In this document: one piece after another, positions 1 through 32,774 of the stretch
Position numbering within the stretch: the stretch's first letter is position 1
Layout of the letters: each line of letters begins with the position of its first letter
IMG/VR virus record: IMGVR_UViG_3300024283_000013
Location: 2,838 to 66,837 of that record
Reading direction: 5' to 3' (one strand)
Origin: a virus
Lineage: Duplodnaviria; Caudoviricetes
DNA length: 64,000 bases
Made by a program: the position numbers and the translations under genes
Notes under the pieces: model-generated
Seen by the model: the letters and a program-made list of their open reading frames with translations, nothing else
The model's database searches: none
What the model was told of the DNA's origin: nothing

Positions 1-190
1 GCTTCTCTAGGATAGCGTTGTTGGCAAACAGGGAAGCCACCCGATCGTTCGCCTCGCTGGTCAGCTTTTGATAGGCATTGATGCGCTCCTGTAACTGCTG
101 AATCTCCTGCTGGGCTTTCCCCAGGTCGGTCATCTGCGCCGAGGCCGATGCGCTCACCAGAAGCATGGCCAGTATCAAAATCCGCCTCAT
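1..190 (-). CDS. Signal-peptide coiled-coil protein (partial, runs off left edge)
   Basis: Translated by hand from ATG at 190: MRRILILAMLLVSASASA|QMTDLGKAQQEIQQLQERINAYQKLTSEANDRV; not in the supplied ORF track. Confidence 0.75.
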   Translation of the reverse strand, partial: MRRILILAMLLVSASASAQMTDLGKAQQEIQQLQERINAYQKLTSEANDRVASLFANNAILEK

Positions 191-201
191 TGCCTGAGCC
201 C

Positions 202-669
202 CTAGAACAGTGTGCACCATTGAGTCGCCGAGCCGCCGACCAACATCGTGCTTCCGTAGTTGGCGTTCATCACCAGCGTCCGCAACCCGTTGATCAGTTT
301 CCCCGACCCGGCATCCAAGGTGATGTTGTTGGTTCCCGCGTCACCCTTCATGTCATGAATGAAGATAATCCGGGACAGCGACGGCGTCGGCAATAAAACC
401 GGCGTCGGGCCCGCGATTGTCTTGTTTATCAGCAGGCCGGCATTGGTGGTGAACGTCGCCCCGGCATTATCCGTCGCTACCTTGCTGCTCAGCGCGAACG
501 ACACCAGGCCGAGGATAGTCGAAATCTCCACGACCGCCGCCAGTCCGCTCTGCGTGATCACCTCGATCAGATCGCTCTCGGAGATCGTCCCGCCATCGAG
601 TTTCTGGACCCCGAGAGCCTGCGCAACGAGAGGGACCACGTTGGTCATGAACGACGACTGCGATGGCAT
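202..669 (-). CDS. Small tail-fibre-type virion protein (no signal peptide)
   Basis: TPVLLPTPSLSRIIFIHDMKGDAGTNNITLDAGSGKLING resembles beta-rich phage fibre/baseplate domains; late-operon position. Confidence 0.6.
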   Translation of the reverse strand: MPSQSSFMTNVVPLVAQALGVQKLDGGTISESDLIEVITQSGLAAVVEISTILGLVSFALSSKVATDNAGATFTTNAGLLINKTIAGPTPVLLPTPSLSRIIFIHDMKGDAGTNNITLDAGSGKLINGLRTLVMNANYGSTMLVGGSATQWCTLF

Positions 670-682
670 TGGGGCACCCTGT

Positions 683-952
683 TCACTTGGTCCCGCAAGC
701 TGTGGCGAGTTGCTTGCGCAACTGAGCTATCTCCGCCTCCGCCGCTTCCGCTCGGGCTTTTTCATGCAGCCGCCGAGCCTCCACCGCCGCGTTCTGGGTC
801 ATGTGGTTCATCATCTTTCGATGCTGATCCGCAATCTTTTCGTTGGCCACGTCCAGTTGCTTCTGCAGTTCTGCGGCCTTGTCGACCGGCGTCTGCGCGT
901 TAGCTGCCACAGCTCCCAGAACAACCGCCAGAACAAGAGCTTTTCTCAACAT
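683..952 (-). CDS. Signal-peptide coiled-coil protein
   Basis: Real start is ATG 952, overlapping the upstream stop: MLRKALVLAVVLGAVAANA|QTPVDKAAELQKQLDVANEK; the longer track ORF is a shadow frame of the fibre gene. Confidence 0.75.
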   Translation of the reverse strand: MLRKALVLAVVLGAVAANAQTPVDKAAELQKQLDVANEKIADQHRKMMNHMTQNAAVEARRLHEKARAEAAEAEIAQLRKQLATACGTK

Positions 953-2763
953 CCAGTGACTCCCGCGCCTACGTTGTCCACGACCGTCGTCGGTGTGGCC
1001 GATGTCCCAGCATACGCCTGTATCTTTGCGGTTCCAGCACCTGTGCCGCAAACCGCTTCGAACTTTACGTTCGCGGCGCCCGGGGCGGTGCCCGAGGCCG
1101 TCACCTTGGTCATCACAACCGCCAGAGACGTCTTTATTGCACCAGTCACATCCAACGCCTGTGCTGGAGTGGAATTGCTGATGCCCACAAGGGGAGTGCC
1201 GCCGATGCCCGTGGCATAGATCGTATTGGCGACATTCAAGTAGTTCGAGGTATTGCTTGCCGGCACGTCGGTGTTCAGGCCGATCAGGATCACACTGGAA
1301 CAGGTAAGGCATGTTCCCCCGAGATTTGACCCCAGCCCGATGAGCCCCTGCGTCCCGCCGGTCTGATTGACGTAGTCGCTGTAGCCGAGAACGGAGTGGG
1401 CCCCATTGTCCGTGGAATTGAGCGACTTCAGGGACTGAGAACCCACCACCGTCGAGAACCCTCCCGTCGGATGAGATCCGGAAGCGCCCTGCAGGGTGTT
1501 CGCGCCGATCGCCGTAATGTGCACGCCTTCATGATGAGCGGCGGTATTGGTGCCGATCGCGGTGAAACCAGCCTGGTTCGTGTACCCATCCGTGGCCGCG
1601 CCTCCACCGACGATGGTGGGCGCGCTCGCCCCCGAGAGTCGAACGGCGGCAAACTCACCGATCACCACCGCGCCGAGGCCCGAGTGCAGGTTGTGGATCG
1701 CGAAGACGTTGAAGCCGGCGCCAAACGTCGTGAAGATGTTGTTGTTTAAGGTGATGGTGGTCGCCGTGTGGCTGAGAACCGTCGCCGGCACCTCCGTACA
1801 GCAAGACCAAACCGCATCCCCATCGACCACACCCGTCGTGCTCACCACGTTGATGACCGGCTGGCCTTGTGCATTGGAGCCGGTCGTCACCAGCGTGGTT
1901 GCGTCGCCATTGCCGGCCTCCGTCCCGATGATGACTCCGAGCGAGCCATTGCCAAACCGATAGGACACGTTGCCCATGGTGACATTGCTGGTGCCGGTCG
2001 ACAGGTTCGTCGATGTATTGCCTCCTACGGCCACATTCGAATTGGCCTGTCCTGTCCCGTACAAAGCATTGAAACCGATGCAGATATTCCCGGCCGACGT
2101 CCCGTTCAGAAGTAGGCAACTTGCCTCCCCCACTCCTACGTTCGTTCCGCCCGTAAGCGGTGTGCCACGCGGGCCGTCGGAGTGGCCACCACGCCCGGAA
2201 AATCCACCCAAAAATGTGTTGGCCGAATTGTTCCCTGCATACTGAGCGACATTGATGCCAACAAAGACGTTCGACTGACCACCAGGCACTTGCCCGGCAA
2301 CATTGAGACCAATTCCCACGCTGCCGGCATCGCTGGTGTTTGCGGCATATGCTCCATCCCCGATGGCAATGGTGCCATTCGTACCGCTGGACAGCGTGGG
2401 CATCGCACCCGCGCCCATGACGATCTGGCTCTGCGGGCCGCTCGCCCAGATAGCTCCCGTCAACGTAACGGTGCTGCTCGAGGCATTGGCAACGCCACTG
2501 CCGCCATGCCCCGGCGCCACGATTCCCGTCAGACCAGTTCCCGCCGGGAGGTTCGTTGCGTTGGTCAAATCGCCGGCAGATGGCGTCCCCAGATCACCGT
2601 TCTGCCGATAGTAAGATCCTGTGCCGGTTGCGTCCGGCATAATGCTGCCAAGTTCACCCGAAGTCGTTGGGCCAGCTACTCCATTGATAGGAGGCTTCTG
2701 AGCCTGCGCTGCCGCCGTCAGCAGCGCCAGGGTGACGACAACAAATGAAAGGAGCTTGCGCAT
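946..2763 (-). CDS. Trimeric beta-helix/YadA-head-like fibre protein with Sec signal peptide
   Basis: Repeats such as NVGVGEAS, NICIGFNAL, NVAVGGNT, ITAIGANTL; C-terminal VGISNSTPAQALDVTG; N-terminus MRKLLSFVVVTLALLTAAAQA|Q. Confidence 0.75.
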   Translation of the reverse strand: MRKLLSFVVVTLALLTAAAQAQKPPINGVAGPTTSGELGSIMPDATGTGSYYRQNGDLGTPSAGDLTNATNLPAGTGLTGIVAPGHGGSGVANASSSTVTLTGAIWASGPQSQIVMGAGAMPTLSSGTNGTIAIGDGAYAANTSDAGSVGIGLNVAGQVPGGQSNVFVGINVAQYAGNNSANTFLGGFSGRGGHSDGPRGTPLTGGTNVGVGEASCLLLNGTSAGNICIGFNALYGTGQANSNVAVGGNTSTNLSTGTSNVTMGNVSYRFGNGSLGVIIGTEAGNGDATTLVTTGSNAQGQPVINVVSTTGVVDGDAVWSCCTEVPATVLSHTATTITLNNNIFTTFGAGFNVFAIHNLHSGLGAVVIGEFAAVRLSGASAPTIVGGGAATDGYTNQAGFTAIGTNTAAHHEGVHITAIGANTLQGASGSHPTGGFSTVVGSQSLKSLNSTDNGAHSVLGYSDYVNQTGGTQGLIGLGSNLGGTCLTCSSVILIGLNTDVPASNTSNYLNVANTIYATGIGGTPLVGISNSTPAQALDVTGAIKTSLAVVMTKVTASGTAPGAANVKFEAVCGTGAGTAKIQAYAGTSATPTTVVDNVGAGVTGC

Positions 2764-2774
2764 CGCGTGATTTC

Positions 2775-3737
2775 TCAGTTCGCGGTGGACTCAAGGTAGA
2801 GCGAAGCGTCCAGAACCGTGCCGGTATCTGTCGCACCGTTCAAAATCCCGGTGAGGCTGAAATAAAGCGGGTTGGCGGCGGCCGAGGTGATGGTGACGGC
2901 TGCAGGCGCCAACGCCGCGTTGCTGCCGCCCGAATAGCCGAGGCTGCCGGCATTCTGACCCAGCAACTGGACGGATGTAGCGCTCTCCAGCCGCAGGGCT
3001 TGCGCGAGTGCCATCTGCCGGGACGCCGCGCTCAAGGCTACCAGGGAAAAAATCTGCGTGTCTGCACCGCCTCCAGTGACGACGCCGGTCGTGCCGATCC
3101 GCAATCCAATCGTGAAAGTATTGGTCGTGCCGGTCGTCGGCTTGAGGACATTCCACTCCCAATACAACCTGTCGTGCGTTTGCAGCAGCCCAGTCGGCAT
3201 TAGATATTGGAGGCCGACTGTCTCCGTCGTGGTGATGCCGGTAACTGGCGTATCGAGCGTCGCCAGCAGTGCCTTGCCGGAGACAGGTTTCCAGCGCGTG
3301 CCGTTGTACCTGAGTAGATTGCCGCCCGTGCCAAAATCACTGGCATAGGCCAGCGTGCCGGTCGCTGGCGCGGTCGCCTTGATATTTGCCCAGGTGTCCG
3401 CAACGATCGACGGCGTCGTGAGCGCCGCCGAACTGGACATGGCAACGCTGCCAGTCCCCGAGATGGTGTACTCGCCCAGAACACCCGCATTGTCGAATAG
3501 CACGCGCGTGGTGGTGCCGCTGGTGATCGTGGTTGTGCCGACCTTGATGTCAGCCGCCGTGCCCGTACCGCAGGCCTGCTGCCCAAGGCGACCGCTGGCG
3601 ATGTAGAGGCAATCGTTGTTGGTGCCGTTGGTGATCGGCGTGCTGCCGATGGTAAGCGTTGGCCCGGGAACCTGCCCGATCGCCACGAACGAAACCCCGA
3701 CCAACAGAAGAAGGGTAGCGAGGAGTATGCGCTTCAT
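2775..3737 (-). CDS. Fibre/spike-like protein with Sec signal peptide
   Basis: Thr/Gly-rich beta protein; GTTTITSGTTTRVLFDNAGVLGE fibre-like motif; MKRILLATLLLLVGVSFVAIG|Q. Confidence 0.65.
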   Translation of the reverse strand: MKRILLATLLLLVGVSFVAIGQVPGPTLTIGSTPITNGTNNDCLYIASGRLGQQACGTGTAADIKVGTTTITSGTTTRVLFDNAGVLGEYTISGTGSVAMSSSAALTTPSIVADTWANIKATAPATGTLAYASDFGTGGNLLRYNGTRWKPVSGKALLATLDTPVTGITTTETVGLQYLMPTGLLQTHDRLYWEWNVLKPTTGTTNTFTIGLRIGTTGVVTGGGADTQIFSLVALSAASRQMALAQALRLESATSVQLLGQNAGSLGYSGGSNAALAPAAVTITSAAANPLYFSLTGILNGATDTGTVLDASLYLESTAN

Positions 3738-3775
3738 GTTCAGGCTTCCTTGGTGGTCACTTATATCATTGACCG

Positions 3776-6700: not shown

Positions 6701-9700
6701 GGTCTCAACGGCGTCCCGCTCCTGCACGTCGGCCAGGGACGGCTGCCGCTCGCGCTCCGGCGCGACCACCGTCCGCTGCGGCTCCTCTGCCAGCATGCGG
6801 TCGAACACGCCGCGGATGTCGTCGTTGATCGGCTTACCGAGGCCCTTGAGCGTCTGGTAGATGTTCAGCAGCCAGTCCTTGAAGCGGGCGAACACGTCGC
6901 CCAGCGCCCGCGACGGCGCCACGCCTTCCCGGAGGTACTGCTCGAAACCCTGCGCGAACTTCTCATGGTGGCCGCGCTTGATGTCTTCCCCGCTCTTGAC
7001 CTTCAGCCACTGGAGCACGGTGTCCCAGTCGTCCCGCACTTCACCAGGCGCCTCCGGGTGCGCCGCGTCCCGTCGCAGTTGCTCGAGGAAGTCGTGCCCA
7101 GCCTCATGGATGAAGGTGGAAGCATCGGCATCGCGGCCAAGCCGCATGATGCGCGTCACCGGATTGTAGGAGCCCAAGCGACGGCCCTGAAACAGGTCGT
7201 TTGCCGGTGCCCTGCCAGGATCATTATTCGTCGGAAACAGTTCACTCTGCTTGTACTCATCGACGTGCTGCGCCGCCCGCTCGACCAAGTCGCGGAAACT
7301 GCGCACCCGATCATGCGCCGCCCGCATCTCGTCCAATATCTGCTGCCCGACCACGCGGCTGCTGTCGCTCATGGTCACGTCAGAGATCACGCGCTCGAAA
7401 TCGGCAACGGCACCAGCGGGGTCATGCTTGCCGAGATCCACCAGTTCGGTCGGTATCGGCAGGTTGCGCAGGTTGCGGCTGAAGCGGTCGCCCTTCTTGA
7501 GCGCGTCTTCCCAGCGCTTCTCCACCTGATCGCGCAGGCTTATCACGTCGCTGTCGCGCGTCTGGAACATCGTATCTTCAATGCTGCCGATAATCTCGGA
7601 CGGAGTCTGTAGCGCTTCCCGCTCGTCCCGGATGTCGAACTTGTCGAACGCCCGATTGAACGCCTGTTCTGGTGTCTCGTCCGCGCCGCGATTGTAGTAC
7701 TTGGAGATGAAGGCGACCTGCTCCTCAGTGAGGGTATTGTCCTTCACGTAGCCGGCGATGATGTCCTTCGCCTCCTGCATCATCACGTTGAAGCGCGCGA
7801 TCTCTTGGACATTCCTCTCTTGCCTCGCCACCGCCTGACGGTTGCCCCTGCGTAGTTTCCCCGTCCTGGGGTTGATCCCCTTCATGCTCGTGCGAGACCA
7901 CTGCGGGTTCTCCGCCCAGATGCGCTCGACCTCTTCGCTCAAGGCGTCGGCGAACGGCTTGGGCCCTTCCGGCTCGGCATCCGGCAGGCGCTCCATGTAC
8001 TCGAGCATTTCCAGGCCCGTCGGGCTGGCCTTGGGCCCCTTCTCCGGCGGCGTGAACTTGTAGCGCGAGTTCCGTTGCCCCTCGAGGATGAACCCGTCAG
8101 GCAGCACCTCGCGCACCATCAGACCCTTCACCGGCCCAACCTCGACTGCGTCACCGACCTTCCATCCTTGGTACTTCTCAGGGATGGCCGGCGCCGGGGC
8201 TGCGGGGGCCGCTGGAGCCGGTTCCGCTGCGGCCGCAGGCGCGGGCGTCTCTGCCGCCGCTGGCGCTGCCGGGGCCGCCGGAGCCTCAGGAGGAGGCTGT
8301 CTCGGGCCACCCTCCGGGCCCTGGATGATGGCCCCCTCGCGCCGGTACAATTCCTCCGCCGTGCCGAGCTTGCCTTGGAAGCGCGCCGCCCGCGCCGCGT
8401 ACCGCTCCGCCATCAGTTTGCCGGCCGCCATCGCCTCTTCGTAGGGCCGCCCCGCCGTGATCAACTGCCGCGCCACGTCGTTTGCAATGAACGCCTTCTG
8501 GTCGCCCAGTGACTTTGTCCCGGTCCCGAATGTTTCTCCCGCTGCGCCACCGCCGCCTGCCGCCGGAGGCGCCACTGGCTGCACCCGCGGCTCGACTTCA
8601 TTCGGCTCGATCACCGGCCGGCGCCCAAGGTGCTCTTCCGCCCGCCGGTATGCCGCTTTCACTTCCAAGGAAAGGCGATCCATCTCCGCTTCGACAGAAC
8701 GCAAATCCTCGCCAAGCTGGCGCCCGCGGGCACTGGTCTCTCCAATCAGCGATGCCGCATGTCCCTGAAGCACCGCCTCCCGCTGCCGCTCTATATCGTC
8801 GGCCATGGCGTCAAGACGACGGCGCTCCGGCCCCCAGTTGGGCTTTTCCCTCTCGGCCTGGATGCGCGTGGCCTGTGCGTTCAAATTGTCGAGTTGAGCC
8901 CGAATAGATGGCGGGTGCGTTTCTTGCTGCCACTGCTGCAAGATCAAGCGCTGCCGCTCGAGCGCGTCGTATCGTTCGAAAAGCTCCGGCTCATCATGCC
9001 GAACGACGGAATGGATGTCCTGCTCATAGGGCCCGTATAAAACCGCCAATTCCTGCCGGTGCTGCTCGTCGGCGAGCATCTGCGCCGTCGGGTCCTGCAG
9101 GTGTGTGCCGCGGTAGACCTCCTCGGTGATCCCTGGTCCCATCACCCCGCGCGCCGCGGCCTCGGCGACGGTGATCGGCCGATCATCGGCGAAGCGCACC
9201 TCACCGTTCTCGTCGACATACGTGCGGCCGAACCGATCAGCCGCACTCTCATCGCCGTAATACCGCAGGCCCGGGCCACGCTGGTTCAGTTCCGTCTCGT
9301 AGATGCCCGTGCGGTAATCAGGATATCCAAAACTGAGAGAACGACCGTAGAGAACCTGGCCGACGGCCCGCCCCGTGTCCGCTACGCCGCGAACCGGCGC
9401 CGCGCCCAGTCCAGTCAGTCGCTCACCCAGCCGCGTCGGCTTATTGAAGACCACCCCAAAGCCAGTCGCATAGGCGACATTGGCCCAGTCGACATTCCCC
9501 TGCGCCGCCTCGGTTCCAAGCTCGAACCCTCCCATCACGGCGCCGCCGAACGCCCGCTGCGTCACCGGATTGGCCATCACCCGCTGCATCGACGTGGCGT
9601 TCTCCGGGAGCTTTGCCGCCTTGAACGACAAGCCGGGCCGCATCGTCAGGGCATATGGCGTCAAGCCACCCAGGAACGACGCCGTCGGATGCTGGCTCTC

Positions 9701-10123
9701 ATCCAGCCGCCTCTGCCGATCCGACATGCCGATCGCTTCGGTCCATGAGTCGGGAAGCTGCTTCAGCGCCCAGTCCTGCGCTTCTTCCGTCAGGTAGGCA
9801 CCGCCGAACATGCCGAGCGCACCGCCTACGAAGCCGCCGATGGCACCGCCGACAGCCGTGCCCGCAGGACCGGCGATCAGAGTGCCGACGCCAGCGCCCG
9901 CAAGACCGCCCGCCTCTACACCGGCACCAGCGCCAACCAGGCCGCCAGCCGCCGGCACCGCCCCACGCTGCGCACTGCGCCGGAACGCGCCCATCGTCGA
10001 TGCCTGAGGCGTCAGGTACTTCTCGCCCGGCTCCTCATCGAACTGGTCGAAACGGTTTGGCTTGCTGTCCGGATCGAGAGCGTCGAAACGGTTGGCCTTT
10101 GGTGCGATGTCCCCGTCAGCCAT
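3776..10123 (-). CDS. Large internal virion (ejectosome, T7 gp16-position) polyvalent protein, 2115 aa, with HExxH zincin domain
   Basis: Position after gp14/gp15-like genes; ASTFIHEAGHDF...HEKFAQGFEQYLREG zincin-like motif; helical C-terminal region typical of large polyvalent virion proteins. Confidence 0.75.
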   Translation of the reverse strand: MADGDIAPKANRFDALDPDSKPNRFDQFDEEPGEKYLTPQASTMGAFRRSAQRGAVPAAGGLVGAGAGVEAGGLAGAGVGTLIAGPAGTAVGGAIGGFVGGALGMFGGAYLTEEAQDWALKQLPDSWTEAIGMSDRQRRLDESQHPTASFLGGLTPYALTMRPGLSFKAAKLPENATSMQRVMANPVTQRAFGGAVMGGFELGTEAAQGNVDWANVAYATGFGVVFNKPTRLGERLTGLGAAPVRGVADTGRAVGQVLYGRSLSFGYPDYRTGIYETELNQRGPGLRYYGDESAADRFGRTYVDENGEVRFADDRPITVAEAAARGVMGPGITEEVYRGTHLQDPTAQMLADEQHRQELAVLYGPYEQDIHSVVRHDEPELFERYDALERQRLILQQWQQETHPPSIRAQLDNLNAQATRIQAEREKPNWGPERRRLDAMADDIERQREAVLQGHAASLIGETSARGRQLGEDLRSVEAEMDRLSLEVKAAYRRAEEHLGRRPVIEPNEVEPRVQPVAPPAAGGGGAAGETFGTGTKSLGDQKAFIANDVARQLITAGRPYEEAMAAGKLMAERYAARAARFQGKLGTAEELYRREGAIIQGPEGGPRQPPPEAPAAPAAPAAAETPAPAAAAEPAPAAPAAPAPAIPEKYQGWKVGDAVEVGPVKGLMVREVLPDGFILEGQRNSRYKFTPPEKGPKASPTGLEMLEYMERLPDAEPEGPKPFADALSEEVERIWAENPQWSRTSMKGINPRTGKLRRGNRQAVARQERNVQEIARFNVMMQEAKDIIAGYVKDNTLTEEQVAFISKYYNRGADETPEQAFNRAFDKFDIRDEREALQTPSEIIGSIEDTMFQTRDSDVISLRDQVEKRWEDALKKGDRFSRNLRNLPIPTELVDLGKHDPAGAVADFERVISDVTMSDSSRVVGQQILDEMRAAHDRVRSFRDLVERAAQHVDEYKQSELFPTNNDPGRAPANDLFQGRRLGSYNPVTRIMRLGRDADASTFIHEAGHDFLEQLRRDAAHPEAPGEVRDDWDTVLQWLKVKSGEDIKRGHHEKFAQGFEQYLREGVAPSRALGDVFARFKDWLLNIYQTLKGLGKPINDDIRGVFDRMLAEEPQRTVVAPERERQPSLADVQERDAVETEPFEAPAVADRMAAEQDIAAQEPPPEVQREIQPIIAEVRAATAAPERGGEAANGAEAGGAVEGGGGAAGTEPGGGNVAEGNAAGGAGGGAATAKGPGVSGGGGSERGAGPASEPPLSPRPAQRYGAKESPYLDKAGNLRPELITNDDTLWQAMRDMADANDGFIGDRRGIVSDIEVQRQAEAIGLEGALSMAEARKIGQAHNAGELWAFGAAWETLARDQEAKMQIAGLPGATEADVLAFTEATARTQLMQAALSGGAAEGGRTLRIFQVMKNRGGSAAEIAQASMGKTLFQMRELAKLGSEMKTSREIGKFINDMQKKSFGRMVIEYWINGLISGVSTHTTYTVGNTIFATNKAIFETAAAAAIGRVRESMGREGERVHLGEVGAQISAAARGYVPSVHSSLESLRTGVTSALPGEEGRGVLPFYTGRNLVTPAALKEDATMRDVAASWFGIGRGVRDAFLVSDDVLKAIDKGDANLFGTEYSPTGTIPNVRVGALAIPTGEVARMPSRFVGAIHTFFRSMNYSMDIASQAYRKAATEGLEGMAFDARVAALRQNPTVEMMERARHTANDLTLMGAGSKFTQKMSAFFNHEFFEGSALQAPWLKLVDPFVHISSNIISEALIKRSPLGAAAYFAPKSELGRDLRGLNGNVAQDKALARMLVGTAFMTLVGGLAAQGLVSGSGPTDPREAAMWRLAGNQAHSVRIGDFWYDTHRLGVQGMLFSMAADLYDVAHLANEGQFTEAGGHLFHAITQNVLDESFMRGPSELVRAVEDHNGYGAVYLRNLGASFLPYSVLMSQTARAIDPYSREARTAIDALRQKIPSASMDLLPKYDVWGQEVPSREVLLGASGLLAIYAQHVGTDPVNQAMLQLGKYPAPVERKIRGVELTDEQHAEFAKLAGRMAKSRLDVIVNSPDWKQMPPEARSAVVDAQIRQSREVAAGYIMSRDPTIPGRAVLQKRENFDKRIQHGSQYNP

Positions 10124-18020: not shown

Positions 18021-18029
18021 CGCGCTTCC

Positions 18030-18938
18030 CTAGTATGCGCTTCCGTCCGAGAAGCCGACGCTCCCCGTCCAGCCTGCACCCCACGTTCCCCATGTCCCCG
18101 TGCCGCCAGCCGCGAACGGCCCCGCACCCCACGCCCAGCTCGACGTTCCCGCAAATCGCGCCTGCGTCCACGATGCCATGTGATCCGTTGATGTAGTTCC
18201 TTCATTCCCGTCCGCGATACGCGCCTCTCCAATTTTCTGTTTCGCTATAGCGATCTGCTCGTCCCGGATTTTGATGGCCTGCTGGCGGTCCTTCTCCATC
18301 CACAGCCCGACGCAAATCTCGCTCGCCATGTAGGCGATCATCGCCCCCAGGAAGAGCGGGTCCCACAGCGACGGGTAGACGGCGTCGAACGTGTAGATGC
18401 AGGAGGCGTTCTGCACATTCGACAGGATCACCGTCGATCCCACCGGGCTCTGCCCCTGCTGGTTGGTCCCGTCCGGGCCCGGCGCCGTGACGATGTTCGG
18501 ATCGTTCGTCACCAGATAGAGCGACGGCCGAATCGGCAGCCACAGTTGTGCCGGCTGCTGCCCCGACGTCAGCGGCGAACTAGCGTTCGGCGGCGTGATG
18601 TTGCCCGTCGGCGTGAACGGCGTCTGGTAAGGGTTCCAGGGGATGTAGCGGATGCGCGCGCAGTCGGCGGGATAGAAATATTCGTACTGGAACTGCCCGC
18701 TCGCCACCGACGTGCTCACGTTCGGCGTGTTGCCGCTCTGGTCGGCCAGCAGGAGCAGCGGCTTTTGCGTCCGCGCGAACTGCCATGGTGCGCCGCGCAT
18801 CAGTTCTCGCCGGCACTTGGCGTAGGCTCGCAGGCACAGGTTCGCCTCGCGGCCGCCCTCCTCGATATTGCCAAGCTCGACATCGCGTCCTACCGCATCG
18901 AGAGCCAAATTCGCGACATCGGTCGGGGTGTAGCTCAT
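18030..18938 (-). CDS. Tail adaptor (tail tubular protein A) paralog 3
   Basis: TDVANLALDAVG; WQFARTQKPL; EYFYPADCARIR; WDPLFLGAMIAYMASEIC. Confidence 0.8.
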   Translation of the reverse strand: MSYTPTDVANLALDAVGRDVELGNIEEGGREANLCLRAYAKCRRELMRGAPWQFARTQKPLLLLADQSGNTPNVSTSVASGQFQYEYFYPADCARIRYIPWNPYQTPFTPTGNITPPNASSPLTSGQQPAQLWLPIRPSLYLVTNDPNIVTAPGPDGTNQQGQSPVGSTVILSNVQNASCIYTFDAVYPSLWDPLFLGAMIAYMASEICVGLWMEKDRQQAIKIRDEQIAIAKQKIGEARIADGNEGTTSTDHMASWTQARFAGTSSWAWGAGPFAAGGTGTWGTWGAGWTGSVGFSDGSAY

Positions 18939-19558
18939 TGCCGGAACTTCTCTAGATACTCTATGGCGCGAGCTAGAATGCGATCATCCTCCCGAAGAAG
19001 CCCTATTCCCTGATTGCAGCGGGCGCACAGCAGCCCACGAACCCGGCCAGTTCTATGATCGTGGTCGATACACGCAGTACGCTTGTCCTTTCGCCCCTCC
19101 GGAACCGCATTTAGATCGTCGCAACAGATGGCACATAGGCCGTCCTGCTCATGGAAGATGGTCTGCCACTGCTCTTTCGTCAGACCGAATTTCTGCTTAA
19201 CGGCGCCCCACTTTGCCTGTGCCTTTCTCTTGTTCGAATCACGCGCGTAGCGCGCTCTGTCTCGAAGGCGAGAGCATTCCAAGCATTCCGAATTGCGCCC
19301 AGAAACCGTCGTCCAATTCTTCCCGAACGAATCTGCTGCTTTAGCAGCGCCGCACTCGCGGCAAGAAAGCGTCGCCGCCTCCGCATCTGACAGAGAGCGC
19401 AGCCTCCTGTTTTCTTCTTGCCACGCCCTAACGTACCCGCGCCGGCAATCTCTGCATTGACCGCTCAATCTTCCCCTCTCCCGACTAAATGCCGACAAAG
19501 GCTTTTCCTCTAAGCATTTGCGACAAGCGCGCAAAGATGCGGGGAGAAGGTCATTCAT
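18935..19558 (-). CDS. Endonuclease VII-family (homing) endonuclease
   Basis: CAICC...CIDHDHRTGRVRGLLCARCNQGIG; two N-terminal CxxC Zn fingers; ATGA-coupled between adaptor genes. Confidence 0.85.
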   Translation of the reverse strand: MNDLLPASLRACRKCLEEKPLSAFSRERGRLSGQCRDCRRGYVRAWQEENRRLRSLSDAEAATLSCRECGAAKAADSFGKNWTTVSGRNSECLECSRLRDRARYARDSNKRKAQAKWGAVKQKFGLTKEQWQTIFHEQDGLCAICCDDLNAVPEGRKDKRTACIDHDHRTGRVRGLLCARCNQGIGLLREDDRILARAIEYLEKFRQ

Positions 19559-20193
19559 CTGTCTTCCAGTTCAGACATCATACGGGCCGACTGTGATTCT
19601 GGCACAGTCATCTTGCTCGTATCCAGCCCTACAAGGGACGGCCCCGCCAAAGCCGCCAGTCTAGCCGCAAGTGATTCCGTGAAGGCTTGGTCCCAACTCC
19701 CCGGGTCAGTGACGCGCCGCGTGTAGACCGCAATCGCGTTCGGCACATTTGTTAAAATCACCCAGCCCGGCGCCGTTGGAATACTCGGCGGGTTGGGATA
19801 CTTGTCGTTCGCCTCAGTGAACGGGTAGAAGCGCGGGTCTGCATTAATTACAAATCCTGGCTGAGGCTTCACCATCCGGATCTTCAAAGCATCATCGGGA
19901 TAAAGGTATTCCCACATAAATCCTACGGGGGGATTGGTTGTTGGACTCCAGACATTCGGCGGGAAATAGCCGCCAACTGGTGCCGACTTGACCACCGTGA
20001 GAGAGACCGACGCTTGAGCAAAATCGTAATCAAACTCACGAAGCATTGTATCGCGAGCGTTGCCGTACAAATCCAGCATCACCGCCGCCTGGTCCGAGCC
20101 GTCAAGCAGCGTGCCGACGCGCATCTTCAGGCCCATGCGGGCGAAGGCGTTGTTGGCAATATCGGCCGGCGAGCGGAGGGAACGATCAGCCAT
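19555..20193 (-). CDS. Tail adaptor (tail tubular protein A) paralog 2
   Basis: ADIANNAFARMG; YDFAQASVSL; EYLYPDDALKIR; WDQAFTESLAARLA. Confidence 0.8.
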   Translation of the reverse strand: MADRSLRSPADIANNAFARMGLKMRVGTLLDGSDQAAVMLDLYGNARDTMLREFDYDFAQASVSLTVVKSAPVGGYFPPNVWSPTTNPPVGFMWEYLYPDDALKIRMVKPQPGFVINADPRFYPFTEANDKYPNPPSIPTAPGWVILTNVPNAIAVYTRRVTDPGSWDQAFTESLAARLAALAGPSLVGLDTSKMTVPESQSARMMSELEDR

Positions 20194-20761
20194 TGCGCGC
20201 CTCGCCTATCTTCGAGGCGGCCTGCGCGATCGACAGTTGCGACTGTTCCGTCTCCGGGCGGCCCGAAATAGCCTGTGCCAGTTCCGAAGCGAGATACCGC
20301 ACCACCGTCTCACGAAGACTTGCGTCCCATACATTCTCCGTCGGATTGTTGTTCAAGATCGCCAGCGCCCCGTCGATGTCGGTCCAGATCACCTTCGTCT
20401 GCACCCCACCCACCTGTGTGTTCCCCACGTTCCATGTCGTCGGCAGCGGATCGTTGGGGTCGGTGTTCGCCGGATCGATCATCTGCCAGATTTCCAAGGC
20501 GAACGGTGGGTAGATGTACTCCCGACTGTAGCCCAGCGTGAACGGCCCGACATTGCCGCTGGCGCTCAGCGCAATCTGCCGCCGTGTCGCGTCCCAGCCA
20601 TAGGACCGCAGGATGAACGCCACGCACGGCAGGTAGAGCTTCTGCAGCGCCTTGCCGGCCGTCGAGTCGTCAAACGTCGGCGCAAGCCCCGTCACGGCAG
20701 GCTGGTTCCCGCCGATCATCTGGAGAGCCTGGTTGGCGATGTCGGTCGAGACAACGGGCAT
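20186..20761 (-). CDS. Tail adaptor (tail tubular protein A) paralog 1
   Basis: TDIANQALQMIG; WDATRRQIAL; EYIYPPFALEI; WDASLRETVVRYLASELA. Confidence 0.8.
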   Translation of the reverse strand: MPVVSTDIANQALQMIGGNQPAVTGLAPTFDDSTAGKALQKLYLPCVAFILRSYGWDATRRQIALSASGNVGPFTLGYSREYIYPPFALEIWQMIDPANTDPNDPLPTTWNVGNTQVGGVQTKVIWTDIDGALAILNNNPTENVWDASLRETVVRYLASELAQAISGRPETEQSQLSIAQAASKIGEARNG

Positions 20762-20767
20762 CTGGGC

Positions 20768-22357
20768 TCACTGCGTGCAGAACTCGTAAATGACCACGAA
20801 GCCGTTGGCTCCCGCCCCGCCGTTGGCGCCGCCGCCGGCATTGGACGAAGCACCACCACCACCACCGCCACCACCGCCTACGCCCACGGCGCCGTCCGCC
20901 GCCGTCGTGCTGCTGGCCCCGCCACCGCCCGCGCCCAGGTGACTCGAGCCGCCCTTGCCGCCGACTGCGGTCCCGGAGGCCGCGCCGGTCGTGCTCGGAA
21001 CGGTGCCACCCGTCTCGCCAGTGATCTTGACGTCGCCCGTAGCCGGCACACCGCCGCCGCCGCCCACACCATTGCCATCCCCGCCGATTCCGCCTGCGGC
21101 AGAGCACAGCGCGCCAACCGTGGTCGTGCCGCCAGTCCCACCCGCCGTGCCGGTCGTATTGCCGCCCGAGCCGCCGGTGCCGATGGTGACCGCCTGAGAA
21201 ACGCCGATTGTCGAGGCAGAGGCAGTCACCACAGCGTATCCGCCGGAACCGCCACCTCCGCCCCCGGCAATCACCGAAGCCCCCGTGTTGGCCCGCCCGC
21301 CGCCGCCACCACCCGCTCCCACACATTCGATGACCGCGTAGTACAGGTGAGCGTTCGGCGTGTAGGTGCTGTTCGTGGTGAACTTCTGGATGCGAACCGC
21401 CTGCGACGACACCGACACCGTGGCAAAGGCCGTCGTCGCGATCTGCGTCGTGCTGGTGCCGTTCGACGCCGTCGGCGCCGCAGGCGTGCCGGTGAAGGTC
21501 GGCGAAACAGACGCAACAAGCGTGGAGCCCGTCCCAGTCAGCGCCGTGATCGACGTGCCGTTGATCTTGAAGACGTTGCCGGTGCCCGCCGTGTCATAGG
21601 TCTTGTTGGTGAACGTGTCGGTCGTCGCCTTGGCCACCAAGGTGTCGGTCGTCGCCGGCAAGGTCAGGACACCCGATGCCGTGGCCGACGCCTGCACCTG
21701 CGTCGTGCCGCTGCCAGAGCCAGCAAAGAGCACCTGCCCGGAGAAGGTGTTGTTCCCGGAGAAGGTGTTGTTCGTATTGTTCTTGGGAACCGTGTTGCCA
21801 CTGGTGCCGATCGACGTGGCGCAGTCGGACACCAGCGTGCCCGAGGTATTGTTCCAGCAGACCAGATCGTTGACGATGCTGGTGCCGGGCCCGACGATGC
21901 CGCTGATCGAGAACGGGAACTGGTAGGCTGTGCCGTTGATGTTGAAGCTCAGCGGCAGCGCCGAGGTCCCGACCGCCCCGTAGGCCAGCAGCCCGCCGCC
22001 CTGCGCGTTCGCATCCAGGCAGAGGTAGTGGTAGAGCCCGGTCGACGTCGCATTGTCGTACATGCAGTTGTGCGTCGAGAGCGGCCCGGTGCCGCCATTC
22101 GCATACGGCCCCGTGCCGGTTCCCCGGTTCGTCTGGTTCCATTCGCTGATGCCGACACCGGGCCCGCCGCCGCTCGCCGCGCCAGCGTCAACAACGATGG
22201 GTTGGGCGAACGTCGGATTGCTGTAAATCGGGAGGTGGCCCGCCGTGTAGTTGCCACCTTGCAGAACGGACGTTTGGCCCAGCGCCAGGGCGGGCCACAG
22301 CAGAAGTAGGGCGAGAAGCGCGCCTAGCCTATTCGGGCCCCGCTTTGTCATAGGCAT
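20768..22357 (-). CDS. Tail fibre with C-terminal glycine-rich domain and Sec signal peptide
   Basis: Start at ATG 22357 (GGAGG upstream) or 22351; SPTFTGTPAAPTA...TQIATTAF fibre repeat; GAGGGGGG glycine-rich tip; RLGALLALLLLWPALALG|Q. Confidence 0.8.
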   Translation of the reverse strand: MPMTKRGPNRLGALLALLLLWPALALGQTSVLQGGNYTAGHLPIYSNPTFAQPIVVDAGAASGGGPGVGISEWNQTNRGTGTGPYANGGTGPLSTHNCMYDNATSTGLYHYLCLDANAQGGGLLAYGAVGTSALPLSFNINGTAYQFPFSISGIVGPGTSIVNDLVCWNNTSGTLVSDCATSIGTSGNTVPKNNTNNTFSGNNTFSGQVLFAGSGSGTTQVQASATASGVLTLPATTDTLVAKATTDTFTNKTYDTAGTGNVFKINGTSITALTGTGSTLVASVSPTFTGTPAAPTASNGTSTTQIATTAFATVSVSSQAVRIQKFTTNSTYTPNAHLYYAVIECVGAGGGGGGRANTGASVIAGGGGGGSGGYAVVTASASTIGVSQAVTIGTGGSGGNTTGTAGGTGGTTTVGALCSAAGGIGGDGNGVGGGGGVPATGDVKITGETGGTVPSTTGAASGTAVGGKGGSSHLGAGGGGASSTTAADGAVGVGGGGGGGGGASSNAGGGANGGAGANGFVVIYEFCTQ

Positions 22358-22700
22358 TCGCGCTTTCCTCCATAGGCTGCGGCGGCGGAGGTTCGGCCGG
22401 TTGGGCATGAAGCTCCGCAACCTGCGCCGCCAAGGCGTCCACCTTAGCAGACAATTCCACCACCTGCTCCGGCGAGATGTGCGCGAACAGCGCGTCGAAG
22501 CGCTCGTTCAGCTTCTGGATACCATCCTGAAGTCCGCGAATTTCGTCCGGCGGCGGCGCCGTGGCCAACTTCTCGACCTGAGCCTTCACCTCGGCGATGT
22601 CCTGCTCGACCTTCGCCATCATCGTGCGATCCATGTGCTCTCCTTCCTCGGCTGGTGCAGAGGTCGAATAGTGCCGGCCGCTCATGTCCTGTTGCATCAT
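22329..22700 (-). CDS. Coiled-coil hypothetical protein
   Basis: Heptad pattern; ATGA-coupled to the staple gene. Confidence 0.65.
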   Translation of the reverse strand: MMQQDMSGRHYSTSAPAEEGEHMDRTMMAKVEQDIAEVKAQVEKLATAPPPDEIRGLQDGIQKLNERFDALFAHISPEQVVELSAKVDALAAQVAELHAQPAEPPPPQPMEESANAYDKAGPE

Positions 22701-23008
22701 TCGTCCTCCGTCGCTTCGTTCTCGACCGCGAGCTTTTCGATCTGAAGCTCCACGCGCGCCGTGCGGCCGCCCTCGGTCTCGTTCTGGGAAACGCTGGTGA
22801 CCGTCGCGAAGGCGCGCAGATCGATCACGTCACCGATCTCGCAGTCGCAATCCAGACCCAGCTTCGCGAGTTCCTTCTCGGTCAGGCTGATCCGCAGCCC
22901 CCAGGGATAGCGCGGCTTCATGCTGTCGCCGCCCGCCACAGGCATCGCCATGTCGAGCTGGTCTTCGTCGTCCAACTCCATATCGGTGAGTCGGGTCCAG
23001 CCGGCCAT
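22697..23008 (-). CDS. Capsid staple-like protein
   Basis: PRYPWGLRISLTEKELAKLGL...VELQIEKL motif recalled from BPP-1-like podovirus head modules. Confidence 0.6.
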   Translation of the reverse strand: MAGWTRLTDMELDDEDQLDMAMPVAGGDSMKPRYPWGLRISLTEKELAKLGLDCDCEIGDVIDLRAFATVTSVSQNETEGGRTARVELQIEKLAVENEATEDE

Positions 23009-23012
23009 GGGG

Positions 23013-23450
23013 CTATGCCTCCGCCGGTTCGGCCGCCGGTTCCGCCGCAGCCTCGCCCGCAGGAGCCTCGCCGCCCACCGCCGGCCCCGCCGTCAGTTCC
23101 GACGCATGGCGCTTGTCCATCTCGTCGATCTCCTTCATGTGCCGTTTGTGCGCGCCGTCCCGCTCGCTGCGGTGATTGCCATGCATGTCGCGCAACTCGG
23201 TGCGGTGGCGGTTGTACATCGCCTCCCGCTCCTGCATCTGCTTGGCCGACTTGTCGTCGCCCTCGGCCGCCATCTTGGGCTCAGCCGCGCTCTCGCCGGT
23301 GACCTTCTCGACCGGATCCGCCGCCTTCTCAGGCTCCTTCGCGGGTTCCTTGGCGGCCTCCTTGGCAGGCTCCTTCTTCTCCGGCGCCTTCTTTACGGCC
23401 TCGGCAGAAGCCGCCTTCTTGTGGTCATAGAGCTTCTTGCGATCGGCCAT
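23013..23450 (-). CDS. Lys/Glu/Ala-rich protein with His-rich helix; N-terminal RKKLYDH motif
   Basis: Start re-assigned to ATG 23450 (MADRKKLYDH). Confidence 0.7.
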   Translation of the reverse strand: MADRKKLYDHKKAASAEAVKKAPEKKEPAKEAAKEPAKEPEKAADPVEKVTGESAAEPKMAAEGDDKSAKQMQEREAMYNRHRTELRDMHGNHRSERDGAHKRHMKEIDEMDKRHASELTAGPAVGGEAPAGEAAAEPAAEPAEA

Positions 23451-23454
23451 TGGC

Positions 23455-23667
23455 CTAACTCCCGGAACGAGGGTGGTCATACATCTTCTTGCGACGATGA
23501 CCCATCTTCTCAAACGTCAGCGCCAGCCGAGCGCGCTTGCCGGTCGTGCCGGGAGCATCCTTCTTCTCCTCGGCCATCTCGTGCACGGACTTGCCAGCGG
23601 CTTCCGCCTGCTTGGTAAAGGCCCCCTTCTTCAGATGCGCCTTCTGGATCCACTTCTTCTTCGCCAT
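23455..23667 (-). CDS. Small basic protein, C-terminal RRKKMYDHP
   Basis: Start re-assigned to ATG 23667; KKWIQKA...GKRARLALTFEKM family common in phage head modules. Confidence 0.7.
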   Translation of the reverse strand: MAKKKWIQKAHLKKGAFTKQAEAAGKSVHEMAEEKKDAPGTTGKRARLALTFEKMGHRRKKMYDHPRSGS

Positions 23668-23695
23668 CGTGCGGCTCGCTACATCGGTGATCGTG

Positions 23696-23917
23696 CTACT
23701 GGTCATGAAGCGTGTGCTTGTACTGCCCTCGAACCTTCGCTCGAAAGACACTGCCAGGCGACTCCGCGGCCGCAAGCTCGTGGTACACCTCGGGGGGCAC
23801 CCCGGCATAGGAATAGATGCCGCCTCCCTTGAAACGCACGAAGAGCCGTGTCCCCTGATGGCCCACCGCCTCGAGGTTGGACGACTTCACTTCCTTCATC
23901 GGAGGCAGGCCGTTCAC
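23696..23917 (-). CDS. KTSC domain protein
   Basis: VKSSNLEAVGH...LFVRFKGGGIYSYAGVPPEVYHELAAAESPGSVFRAKVRGQY. Confidence 0.9.
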   Translation of the reverse strand: MNGLPPMKEVKSSNLEAVGHQGTRLFVRFKGGGIYSYAGVPPEVYHELAAAESPGSVFRAKVRGQYKHTLHDQ

Positions 23918-24096
23918 TTCTTGCTCCCGTGGTCGTAGACCTTCTTCCGCTTCGCCGCCCAGTTCGCGATCCGGATGGCCTTACCCTCGTCCCCCGTCTC
24001 CTTGAGGATCGCATTGGCCGTCTCCGCCGCCTTGGCAGCAGCCTTGCCGTGGAGCGCCTTGTTGTGCTTGCCGAAGCTCTTGGCGTTCCACGGCAT
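23914..24096 (-). CDS. Small basic ChaB-like protein, C-terminal RKKVYDH
   Basis: MPW...KAAETANAILKETGDEGKAIRIAN pattern. Confidence 0.6.
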   Translation of the reverse strand: MPWNAKSFGKHNKALHGKAAAKAAETANAILKETGDEGKAIRIANWAAKRKKVYDHGSKK

Positions 24097-24110
24097 CGCC
24101 GGTCTCTCGT

Positions 24111-25427
24111 TTACAGCTCAGCGTTCGCCGTGATCTTGCCGGAACCGTTGTTGTCCGCGATCGTCATGGACAGCCCAACCGCAATGGTCGAACTGGTCAG
24201 GCTGCAAAGTGCCATAGCCTGCTGGGTCGACACGACATAGGTGATACTTGTCGCCGCAGCGAGCGCCGAGCAAGCGGTCGCGGTGGTCTCCGCCGTGGTG
24301 GTGAACCCAGCAAAGCCGGCGGTGTAGGCCATAGTCGGCGCGACGCGCATCGGCACTGGGAACACGACCGGGAACACAAGCCTGCCCGCTCCGTCGCCGG
24401 CGCCGGCCGTGGTGATGTGACCGACGAAACGCGGGATAAGCGTCGCACCCTCCGCGACCTGGTAGTAGTAGCGATACTGCGCCAGAGACTCGGTTTCTTG
24501 AGTGCGGCGGGCGAAAGACTTGGCCCGCGTATCGTTCGGCGAAAGAGCCACACCTGCCGTTCCAGCCGCGGCAGTCAATGCGCTGTTGCGCGTCAACTGG
24601 ATACCGGAGAAGGCGATGTAGTCGTTGGTGCTCGCCGTGCCCACCGGGGTGAAGCACAGAGCCACCGCCACCTGCGTCGTTGCCGCCGGAACCGGGATCG
24701 CCACGGTGTAGCGGTTGTTCGTCGAGGAGATCGTGACGTTCACGCCAATGGCAACGCCGCCCGTGAAGCCGGGAGTGCCGCCGCCACCCGCGTTGACGGT
24801 GAAGGCCGCCAGTGCTGCGCTTTCATCCGTGCCCGTGCCAGACACGAGGTAGGCCGTCATCACCGAGTTGGCCGCGGAGAAGTTGGCACCCGCCGTCGCA
24901 TGGAAGTCGATCTCGGCGGTCTGCCCGGAGAACTGGTAGCTGTTCGCCGACTCCAGCGCCTGAATCATGCACACCGGAAGGACGCCGGTCTGACCGGACG
25001 TGCGCGCCATCTTGAAGCCCGACTTGAAGGTGCCCGCCGCCGGCAGATCGGCCGCCGTGGTCGTGCGGCTAACCGTCATCGCCGTGGCAGTGCCCGACCA
25101 GTAGGCCCACCGATCCGGGCCGCCGTAGGTCGTGGTCGTGGTGACGCTCGAGCCGGTCGTCGCGCGCTGCCACAGGTTGGTCGTGGAGTCGCCGCCAATC
25201 AGCGCGTTCTCCGGATTGTTGCCCGAGAGCGTTTCGCTGTAGTTGCCCAGCAACGCCGCCGATGCGTACTGGCTCTGCGCGCTCGGCTGACCGCGCGGGA
25301 TGATCTGGATCAGGTCGGTGGAGCCGATCGACTGCACCTGCGGCACGCTGATCGTCTGAGCCAGCGCGATGCCGCCGATGAGAGCGGTGGCGGCCAGAAC
25401 GCCCGCGAGTAGCTTCTTGAAGTTCAT
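24111..25427 (-). CDS. Fibre/head-spike-like carbohydrate-binding protein with Sec signal peptide
   Basis: NALIGGDSTTNLWQR...GPDRW motif of fibre CBM-like domains; MNFKKLLAGVLAATALIGGIALA|Q. Confidence 0.7.
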   Translation of the reverse strand: MNFKKLLAGVLAATALIGGIALAQTISVPQVQSIGSTDLIQIIPRGQPSAQSQYASAALLGNYSETLSGNNPENALIGGDSTTNLWQRATTGSSVTTTTTYGGPDRWAYWSGTATAMTVSRTTTAADLPAAGTFKSGFKMARTSGQTGVLPVCMIQALESANSYQFSGQTAEIDFHATAGANFSAANSVMTAYLVSGTGTDESAALAAFTVNAGGGGTPGFTGGVAIGVNVTISSTNNRYTVAIPVPAATTQVAVALCFTPVGTASTNDYIAFSGIQLTRNSALTAAAGTAGVALSPNDTRAKSFARRTQETESLAQYRYYYQVAEGATLIPRFVGHITTAGAGDGAGRLVFPVVFPVPMRVAPTMAYTAGFAGFTTTAETTATACSALAAATSITYVVSTQQAMALCSLTSSTIAVGLSMTIADNNGSGKITANAEL

Positions 25428-25437
25428 GGTCGCTCCT

Positions 25438-25812
25438 TCAGTTCACGATGACGTAGTTGTAGATGCTGGTATCGAGAGCGGTGCCGCCCACGGTGAAGCC
25501 AGTACCCGGAGTTGTGGTCAGCACGTTTGGCGAGTTCGGGCTCACCGTTCCGCCGACCGTCTTCAGGGTGAAGATCACCACCGAGTTGGCGGTCATCCGC
25601 GCGTTGGTCACCGTTACCGGCGTGGCGCCATTCAGCGTCACCGTCCCGCTCGACAGAGTGAAGTAGCAGGAGGTCGTGCACGGCGAGCCGATGCCGGTGA
25701 CGTTCGTCTGCGTGCCGAAGGTGGAAAGCCGCTGCATACCTCCCTGCGCAAAGGCGATCGACGCGATGGCGGCGAACAGCGCGGCAGCAATGAACATTCT
25801 GAGCTTGGTCAT
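25438..25812 (-). CDS. Small beta-rich virion-type protein with Sec signal peptide
   Basis: GTVTLNGATPVTVTNARMTANSVVIFT...GTGFTV head-fibre-like motif; MTKLRMFIAAALFAAIASIAFA|Q; CTTSC. Confidence 0.65.
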   Translation of the reverse strand: MTKLRMFIAAALFAAIASIAFAQGGMQRLSTFGTQTNVTGIGSPCTTSCYFTLSSGTVTLNGATPVTVTNARMTANSVVIFTLKTVGGTVSPNSPNVLTTTPGTGFTVGGTALDTSIYNYVIVN

Positions 25813-32630: not shown

Positions 32631-32774
32631 TCAGCGCCCGAGCGGCAGCGAATTCAGAAGCGCGATCAGGCACAGCAGCAGCACCGGGATCCATAGCGGG
32701 CATTTCCCCAGCGCGTTGGCGATCGTGAGGATGAACGCCGTGATCGCCAGCAGCAGGTAAATCGTGAGCAGCAT
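32631..32774 (-). CDS. 47-aa two-TM membrane protein
   Basis: Hand-translated MLLTIYLLLAITAFILTIANALGKCPLWIPVLLLCLIALLNSLPLGR; TGATG coupling. Confidence 0.6.
   Translation of the reverse strand: MLLTIYLLLAITAFILTIANALGKCPLWIPVLLLCLIALLNSLPLGR

Follow-up and report, generated by a model that had tools for sequence, protein, structure and literature searches.

The virus record IMGVR_UViG_3300024283_000013 holds one virus contig of 66,837 bp, with a GC content of 63% and rated complete by CheckV, of which we have analyzed a stretch of 64,000 nucleotides (nt) – bases 2838-66837, hereafter the window. All of its late genes are on the minus strand, and among them are five – g605, g320, g529, g438 and g124 – whose predicted products resemble tail fibers and begin with leaders of the type recognized by the Sec export pathway. 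To our knowledge, the assembly of all tailed phages studied so far is considered to take place entirely in the cytoplasm. We put at about even the chance that these five proteins are receptor-binding fibers or spikes made as Sec preproteins and docked onto the particle after the inner membrane has opened. Comparison of the predicted proteins with those of relatives gives good support for export, and moderate support for membership of the virion and for the time of docking; attachment following membrane failure is plausible by analogy with other podoviruses. A little more tentatively, we suggest that a large uncultured group of short-tailed phages, recognizable by a g529-type N-terminal domain that recurs in about 1000 protein clusters, may use two-compartment assembly, with the host-recognition parts made outside the cytoplasm.

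An initial annotation of the window had described seven minus-strand open reading frames (ORFs) that start with a basic-hydrophobic leader followed by Gln, and all seven are present (Table 1). Leaders were sought over every ORF of the 66.8-kb genome with a hand-written heuristic that scores the n-, h- and c-regions and the residues at -3 and -1, and is neither SignalP nor a trained predictor. Among real genes it picked the seven, two lipobox proteins to the left of the window, and one hydrophobic ORF of 47 amino acids (aa); it flagged none of the portal, capsid, adaptor, nozzle and internal virion proteins. The seven leaders are 18-27 residues long and have one to three basic residues, with Lys or Arg in the first 2-10 residues, and then a hydrophobic stretch. 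They end at sites with small uncharged residues at -3 and -1 and no Pro at +1 (ASA/Q, ANA/Q, AQA/Q, AIG/Q, ALG/Q, ALA/Q and AFA/Q, the slash marking the predicted cleavage). None has an RR motif and, in agreement with the initial annotation, none has a lipobox Cys at +1. Together with their retention in homologs, these features suggest genuine, cleavable Sec-type leaders. The description of all seven as virion-operon proteins holds in part: the five large ones are fiber-like, whereas the remaining two, g89 and g86, are small coiled-coil proteins near the lysis genes.

Relatives were drawn from IMG/VR loci obtained in a scan with g438 (a scan of IMG/VR with g529 gave no locus) and from five related genomes, G001-G005, the present genome being G000. 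A leader is found in 18-19 of the 21 IMG/VR relatives of g438, and the N-terminal domain of g529 is preceded by one in 6/6 close relatives. Each of G001-G005 has leaders on large unassigned proteins of its late, structural block. Four of these genomes (G001, G002, G004 and G005) have a T7-like tail module, and there the leader proteins sit in the same two slots, one lying between the capsid-proximal genes and the adaptors and the other following the big internal virion protein; G003 is a different kind of phage, and the g438 homolog is all that it shares. The 96 homologs of g320 divide into 32 that bear a leader and 64 leaderless proteins that share the internal module only, and every close homolog combines a leader with Gln at +1 and the start Q.P..G..IG.TP..G. 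Leaders are also present on 4/7 homologs of g605, the other three being classical leaderless fibers, and homologs of g124 were seen in two relatives only. The initial annotation had counted a general lack of leaders among homologs as evidence against export, and we do not see such a lack for g438, g529, g320 or g605.

A profile of the g529 N-terminal domain, built with the leader removed and searched with a cut-off of E up to 0.001, matched 989 cluster representatives, 487 of them at 1e-30, in proteins with total lengths of 267-1560 aa. Among the best 150 of the 989, position 1 of the profile falls mostly at residue ~19-26, or later where the gene call starts upstream; the heuristic flags 127 of these 150, and in most of the others a leader can be seen by eye or the start is truncated. 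The domain itself (about residues 28-200, ~170 aa) is 45-58% identical among relatives, and the C-termini behind it are unalignable. Over the ~1000 g529-type clusters the small residues at -3 and -1, the basic n-region and the length of the leader are kept while its sequence drifts, which argues for selection for Sec and signal peptidase I and not for a structural helix. Genome G005 also codes (9243-10061, minus strand, in locus L031) for a 272-aa fiber-module protein with a twin-arginine (Tat) leader, RRQFLKG, flanked by two Sec-leader proteins; the clade thus appears to employ both export routes for fiber-module proteins.

Cysteine content points in the same direction. The initial annotation reported 8, 2, 7, 4 and 2 Cys in g605, g320, g529, g438 and g124 and proposed that they could pair. 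Counts over the mature parts confirm these numbers, and by their parity the cysteines behave as disulfide pairs. In the six phage genomes, the leader-bearing proteins of at least 100 aa comprise 29 with an even number of Cys, 2 with an odd number and 4 with none, as against 74, 116 and 77, respectively, for leaderless proteins (Fisher p = 4e-9 for the difference in parity). Of 25 families, 21 contain even counts only, odd members occur in one, and three lack Cys; counts among homologs step by twos (4, 4, 6, 6, 8, 8). The homologs of g320 differ likewise, with 31 even, 1 odd and 1 zero where there is a leader and 17 even, 29 odd and 18 zero where there is none. In the g529 N-domain family there are 111 even, 16 odd and no zero counts among the matches listed, g529 itself having the odd number of seven. 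The even-cysteine rule, which Dutton and colleagues are said to have put forward in 2008, reportedly marks disulfide-bonded exported proteins, and the even-Cys signature therefore argues that the leaders really bring these proteins to an oxidizing compartment. Taken together, the comparisons make it well supported that the leaders of the five large proteins would serve as Sec export signals and that disulfides form.

The five large proteins had been called fiber- or spike-like, and profile matches, folds, shared repeats or language-model neighbors indicate fiber or receptor-binding types for all of them. The clearest family matches are those of g529, to PHROG tail-fiber families (best phrog_863, E 2e-32) and Pfam Gly_rich_2, and of the C-terminus of g124, which matches Pfam K1-lyase_C above the cut-off (E 9e-10), a domain of a capsule-specific tailspike. 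An AlphaFold2 (AF2) model of g438, made from a 19-sequence alignment with a predicted local distance difference test (pLDDT) score of 70, folds as a tandem jelly-roll like that of carbohydrate-binding modules. The predicted viral structures that match it best carry annotations as tail fiber proteins (E 7e-24 to 1e-10), and come from Burkholderia, Xanthomonas, Ralstonia, Agrobacterium and cyanobacterial phages. Profile searches gave no family match for g605 or g320. Their ESM Atlas neighbors, which serve as a lead only, are viral structural-protein clusters and Peptidase_S74/phage-tail-like trimer clusters for g605, and viral structural/phage-tail-like trimer clusters for g320. Both proteins have repeat modules common to many classical leaderless fibers; homologs of g605 have the common repeat GTP.SG.LTNATGLP, and one that bears a leader carries a phage tail Collar domain. 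Searches of GenBank phages by tblastn gave no match for g438, g529 or g605, and for g320 just a 34-aa match, at 71%, to the 551-aa leaderless product of a gene in the fiber slot of Bradyrhizobium phage ppBjS10J-1 (OP596615). Sequence searches of the PDB with g529, g605, g320, g124 and two leaderless neighbors returned noise only. Profile searches (Pfam, PHROG) recognized no leaderless fiber candidate in the genome.

The g124 and g438 families have modules in common. The mature N-terminal module of g124 (QG.MQ...PCT.SCY) also heads the g438 homologs in L003, L008 and L009, and the g438 body itself occurs with three different N-terminal modules; in L021 it stands behind a classical leaderless fiber N-terminus. 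By these comparisons, the N-terminal modules of the two families appear to be exchangeable docking modules. The C-terminus of the g438 family is a near-invariant SAEL in 16/19 aligned members (window 24111-24125).

The genes are closely tied to those of the tail. The gene for g529 ends 6 nt ahead of the first adaptor gene, so that its placement in the operon directly before the adaptors had been correctly described, and g320 and g605 follow the gene for the 2115-aa internal virion protein. These are the two places where fibers would be expected in a T7-like podovirus. The order fiber, adaptor 1, adaptor 2, adaptor 3, nozzle is kept in G001, G005, L120 and L121, and a g529-type gene is immediately upstream of adaptor 1 at every locus examined, including two distant contigs from the profile search; one fiber from these contigs ends in Peptidase_S74. 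A g529-type N-domain is found along with adaptor 1 in G000, G001, G005, L001 and L005, and in diverged form in G004 (hhalign E 4e-5), and both are absent from G002 and G003, a pattern that shared ancestry could also yield. The number of adaptor paralogs varies, with one in G002, three in G001 and G005, and four in G004. Genes are spaced by 6-38 nt or overlap, and promoter- and terminator-like sites are not above chance; this tight spacing and the lack of signals of their own mark them as late-operon genes and not morons. We considered and rejected their identity as exported morons, given that they have no promoter or terminator of their own, are 124-605 aa long and are fiber-like.

Table 1. 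Late-operon features of the window, in order of transcription; coordinates are those of the window unless stated otherwise, the number in names such as g605 gives the length of the full product in aa, and a slash marks the predicted cleavage site.
Feature	Coordinates	Strand	Remarks
Portal	32932-34782	-	Leaderless; first in transcription order
Scaffold/protease-like protein	29885-30838	-	Follows portal
Major capsid protein	28810-29859	-	phrog_212, E 9e-63; leaderless
Three proteins of 188, 249 and 295 aa		-	After capsid gene; leaderless; no function assigned
g124	25438-25812	-	After the 188-, 249- and 295-aa genes; leader codons 25747-25812; SIAFA/Q; 2 Cys
g438	24111-25427	-	After g124; leader codons 25359-25427; GIALA/Q; 4 Cys
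Run of small, very basic proteins	23013-24096	-	Between g438 and g529
g529	20768-22357	-	Leader codons 22277-22357; PALALG/Q; 7 Cys
Adaptor 1 (tubular protein A paralog)	20186-20761	-	phrog_394 (tail protein); leaderless
Adaptor 2 (tubular protein A paralog)	19555-20193	-	phrog_394 (tail protein); leaderless
Endonuclease VII/HNH gene	18935-19558	-	Endonuclease_7 match; inserted between adaptors 2 and 3
Adaptor 3 (tubular protein A paralog)	18030-18938	-	phrog_394 (tail protein); leaderless
Tail nozzle (tubular protein B), 1228 aa	14334-18020	-	phrog_376, E 8e-137; leaderless
Internal virion protein, 185 aa		-	Between nozzle and 265-aa protein
Internal virion (ejection) proteins of 265, 957 (M15 peptidase) and 2115 aa	3776-13793	-	phrog_418, Peptidase_M15_3, phrog_6651; leaderless
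g320	2775-3737	-	After 2115-aa protein; leader codons 3675-3737; SFVAIG/Q; 2 Cys
g605	946-2763	-	After g320; leader codons 2701-2763; TAAAQA/Q; 8 Cys
g89	683-952	-	After g605; leader codons 896-952; AVAANA/Q
155-aa protein		-	Between g89 and g86
g86	1-190	-	First 63 of 86 codons inside window; leader codons 137-190; VSASASA/Q
Lysis-like block (L123)	G000 bases 1-3100		Left of window; continues operon

By its predicted proteins the tail module is T7-like and distantly related to the modules of Pelagibacter, Vibrio and Pseudomonas podophages, and the tblastn matches of the nozzle are to tubular protein B/nozzle genes of Vibrio, Pelagibacter and Pseudomonas podophages. The lysis-like block codes for a 62-aa tail-anchored protein, a 173-aa transglycosylase-like endolysin candidate, a 139-aa holin-like protein, a 245-aa papain-family peptidase (Peptidase_C1, E 7e-7) and lipobox proteins of 73 and 153 aa; it is unusual for a papain-type peptidase to be encoded at such a position. 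The very hydrophobic 47-aa ORF picked by the heuristic (32631-32774, minus strand) has a good ribosome-binding site and lies between the portal and scaffold regions, and may encode a small membrane protein.

Both small coiled-coil proteins, g89 and g86, have a leader. In g89 it is followed by a coiled coil of ~70 aa with sub-threshold Pfam coiled-coil matches only, and no homolog is present in the five related genomes; g86 lies just upstream of the lysis genes, has generic coiled-coil Pfam matches below cut-off and ends in PPPPE. Matches of the pair to Pfam DUF2514, ZapG-like and DUF3450 are likewise all below cut-off. In two-component spanins, the i-spanin has a periplasmic coiled coil behind a membrane anchor that is not cleaved, and its gene adjoins or embeds that of an o-spanin lipoprotein. 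The pair might be spanins: a coiled coil is present, but their N-termini have good cleavage sites, and the nearest lipobox genes are 2-3 kb downstream, past the endolysin, holin-like and peptidase genes. They may be periplasmic accessories, related either to lysis or to the fibers.

The presence of Gln at +1 in 7/7 leaders, which the initial annotation had emphasized, is correct but not peculiar to this phage. A homolog of g438 with 64% identity lies on a 5.4-kb contig binned in a Bradyrhizobium metagenome-assembled genome (MAG), and in 323 kb of that MAG Gln is the commonest +1 residue, found in 15/30 heuristic leaders, a small sample rich in paralogous solute-binding proteins. The proportion in the five related phage genomes is 17/45 leader-bearing proteins. 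Gln is moreover the conserved first mature residue of the g529 family (at least 85/127 by the heuristic, and more by eye), and is at +1 in 26/33 leader-bearing homologs of g320. The 7/7 occurrence is at the high end, but cleavage sites of the host type and conserved N-termini account for most of it, and no special explanation is needed. Formation of N-terminal pyroglutamate from the exposed Gln is possible. In the candidate host MAG, an incomplete bin, no match to Glu_cyclase_2 (glutaminyl cyclase) was found; it has 8 DSBA-family matches. The comparisons suggest that the host is probably a Bradyrhizobium-type soil bacterium. A host from the Bacteroidota, whose leaders regularly have Gln at +1, was rejected on the grounds of the 63% GC, the Shine-Dalgarno sites, and the fact that the sole named links are to Bradyrhizobium.

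We propose the following route for the five large proteins. Late in infection, the host Sec machinery would export the fibers, signal peptidase I would trim the leader, and DsbA-type enzymes of the host would make the disulfides in the periplasm. The phage encodes neither a DsbA nor a signal peptidase, and none was found in five genomes, so host enzymes would have to act. The fibers would not meet the fiberless, DNA-filled particles until lysis or the breaching of the inner membrane by the holin, when their conserved mature N-terminal modules would attach them to the adaptor and nozzle. Attachment upon failure of the inner membrane had been proposed in the initial annotation, together with the idea that export might hide the fibers from cytoplasmic immune sensors. 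Podovirus assembly ends with the addition of the fiber or tailspike, which in T7 and P22 needs no energy and can be achieved in vitro; late docking after permeabilization is therefore physically plausible.

Several observations weigh against this route. Cleavage, export and virion membership are all predicted from sequence, and GenBank phages include no cultured relative of the clade. The AF2 model of the g529 N-domain, from a 7-row alignment, has a pLDDT of 38 and is unusable for judging likeness to known fiber anchors. The shared fiber module of g320 begins ~8 residues past the predicted cleavage site, leaving little room for an anchor domain, and the leaderless proteins of 188, 249 and 295 aa encoded after the capsid gene could be unrecognized fibers or decorations. 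Secreted proteins of the host MAG have no even-Cys bias (12 even, 13 odd, in a small sample dominated by solute-binding proteins), and parity would thus not be a general trait of the exported proteins of the host. Some of these points fit a reading, akin to the alternative in the initial annotation that the proteins decorate the infected cell, in which the five proteins are exported and disulfide-bonded and are not on the particle, acting instead on the envelope of the infected cell or as free proteins. They could spare progeny from loss on debris by masking or destroying receptors, block superinfection, or loosen surface polysaccharide, with the true receptor-binding function lying in the nozzle or in an unrecognized leaderless protein. 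The leader and cysteine evidence fits this equally, and the lectin-like tandem carbohydrate-binding fold of g438 and the depolymerase-associated domain of g124 would suit it, as would the short N-terminus of g320 and the unassigned leaderless proteins; leader-bearing phage-like fibers on a bacterial surface are known in the MAT fibers of Bdellovibrio (PMC10769870). We regard it as the main rival, but as less likely than docking on the particle. The genes keep a strict, tightly packed order with the adaptors across divergent genomes and are without the separate promoters and terminators that morons usually have, a conserved N-terminus with a variable C-terminus is what docking fibers typically show, and the N-domain and adaptor 1 come and go as a pair. 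A podovirus with five fiber-like genes and none of their products on the particle would be odd, and leader-bearing proteins of Cellulophaga phage phi18:3, described below, have been found in virions.

The leaders could also be idle for export. Assembly would then be cytoplasmic, as in the textbook route for all studied tailed phages, with the N-terminal peptide acting as an assembly or anchoring helix or as a propeptide that a phage protease removes, and with oxidation of the cysteines only after release. A scaffold/protease-like protein and a papain-family peptidase are among the predicted products of the phage, and signal predictions in Porphyromonas phage capsid proteins were taken to be prohead-protease sites (Matrishin et al. 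2023, PMC10367356). However, the length of 18-27 residues, the -3 and -1 residues and the n-region are kept over ~1000 clusters despite sequence drift, the +1 preference agrees with that of the likely host's own leaders, and a Tat leader in the same module of a relative makes sense only as an export signal; leaderless structural proteins, which also end up outside the cell, show no even-Cys bias. This reading therefore seems to us distinctly improbable. It is hardly credible that the leaders are products of chance or annotation, with wrong starts or frames mimicking them. The heuristic does flag several spurious antisense ORFs in this GC-rich genome, but the seven are long frames with high GC at third codon positions and have ribosome-binding sites, and the position of the leader is conserved in hundreds of independent homologs from other pipelines, data that refute an artefact.

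If the fibers are indeed exported and docked late, lysis timing and fiber attachment would be mechanically coupled, and the host Sec, signal peptidase and Dsb proteins would be phage dependency factors and possible routes to resistance. Disulfide-stabilized fibers could account for the robustness of soil phages. Pipelines for fiber prediction and phage engineering that discard leader proteins as 'non-structural' would, moreover, be missing the receptor-binding proteins of a large uncultured group.

Several known systems invite comparison. The coat proteins pIII and pVIII of Ff phages have cleavable leaders and assemble outside the cytoplasm, and the disulfides of pIII are made by DsbA in the periplasm; Ff phages are, however, non-lytic, membrane-extruded single-stranded DNA phages without a preformed capsid or tail. 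Lambda Lom and Bor, T5 Llp, and Cor are exported, leader-bearing morons among tail genes. Unlike the present proteins, they are small, belong to the outer membrane or are lipoproteins, and have expression signals of their own; they are not fiber-like, and are without a conserved-N, variable-C design. Fibers of the T7 gp17 type and that of ppBjS10J-1 are encoded in a corresponding slot, between the internal virion proteins and lysis, and share internal modules with g320, but they have cytoplasmic anchor domains, are leaderless and have no even-cysteine bias.

Our full-text searches of the literature met no account of leader-bearing tail fibers in tailed phages; promising papers there concerned endolysins, spanins or host receptors. 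The MAT fibers of Bdellovibrio bacteriovorus have a signal peptide, a conserved beta-rich N-domain of ~130 aa, a variable fiber body and often a Peptidase_S74 end (Caulton et al. 2024, PMC10769870). This layout is like that of the g529 family, with its leader, conserved N-domain of ~170 aa, variable body and, in one member, S74, although MAT proteins are cellular display proteins of a predatory bacterium and not products of phage tail-operon genes. In Porphyromonas gingivalis phages, predicted signal-peptidase cleavage exposes Gln, which was read as a fit to the host secretion system (Matrishin et al. 2023, PMC10367356). The genes concerned there are capsid, spanin and unassigned genes, modification of the host outer membrane was proposed, and tail fibers and virion assembly go unmentioned (PMC10367356).

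The 71-kb Cellulophaga phage phi18:3 (NC_021794) differs in having a host from the Bacteroidota, in which Gln at +1 is the rule, and in the Cys counts of its gp085-087 (0, 1 and 3); no sequence similarity of these to the present proteins was detected, and the record is silent on leaders and cleavage. The likeness lies in arrangement, since gp085-087 are three consecutive large proteins with a Sec-type leader and Gln at +1, encoded just upstream of the lysis genes and annotated from tandem mass spectrometry of virions as 'virion structural protein', 'structural protein' and 'tail protein'. With its virion proteome on record, phi18:3 offers a cultured handle on the question of exported virion proteins, which is thereby directly testable.

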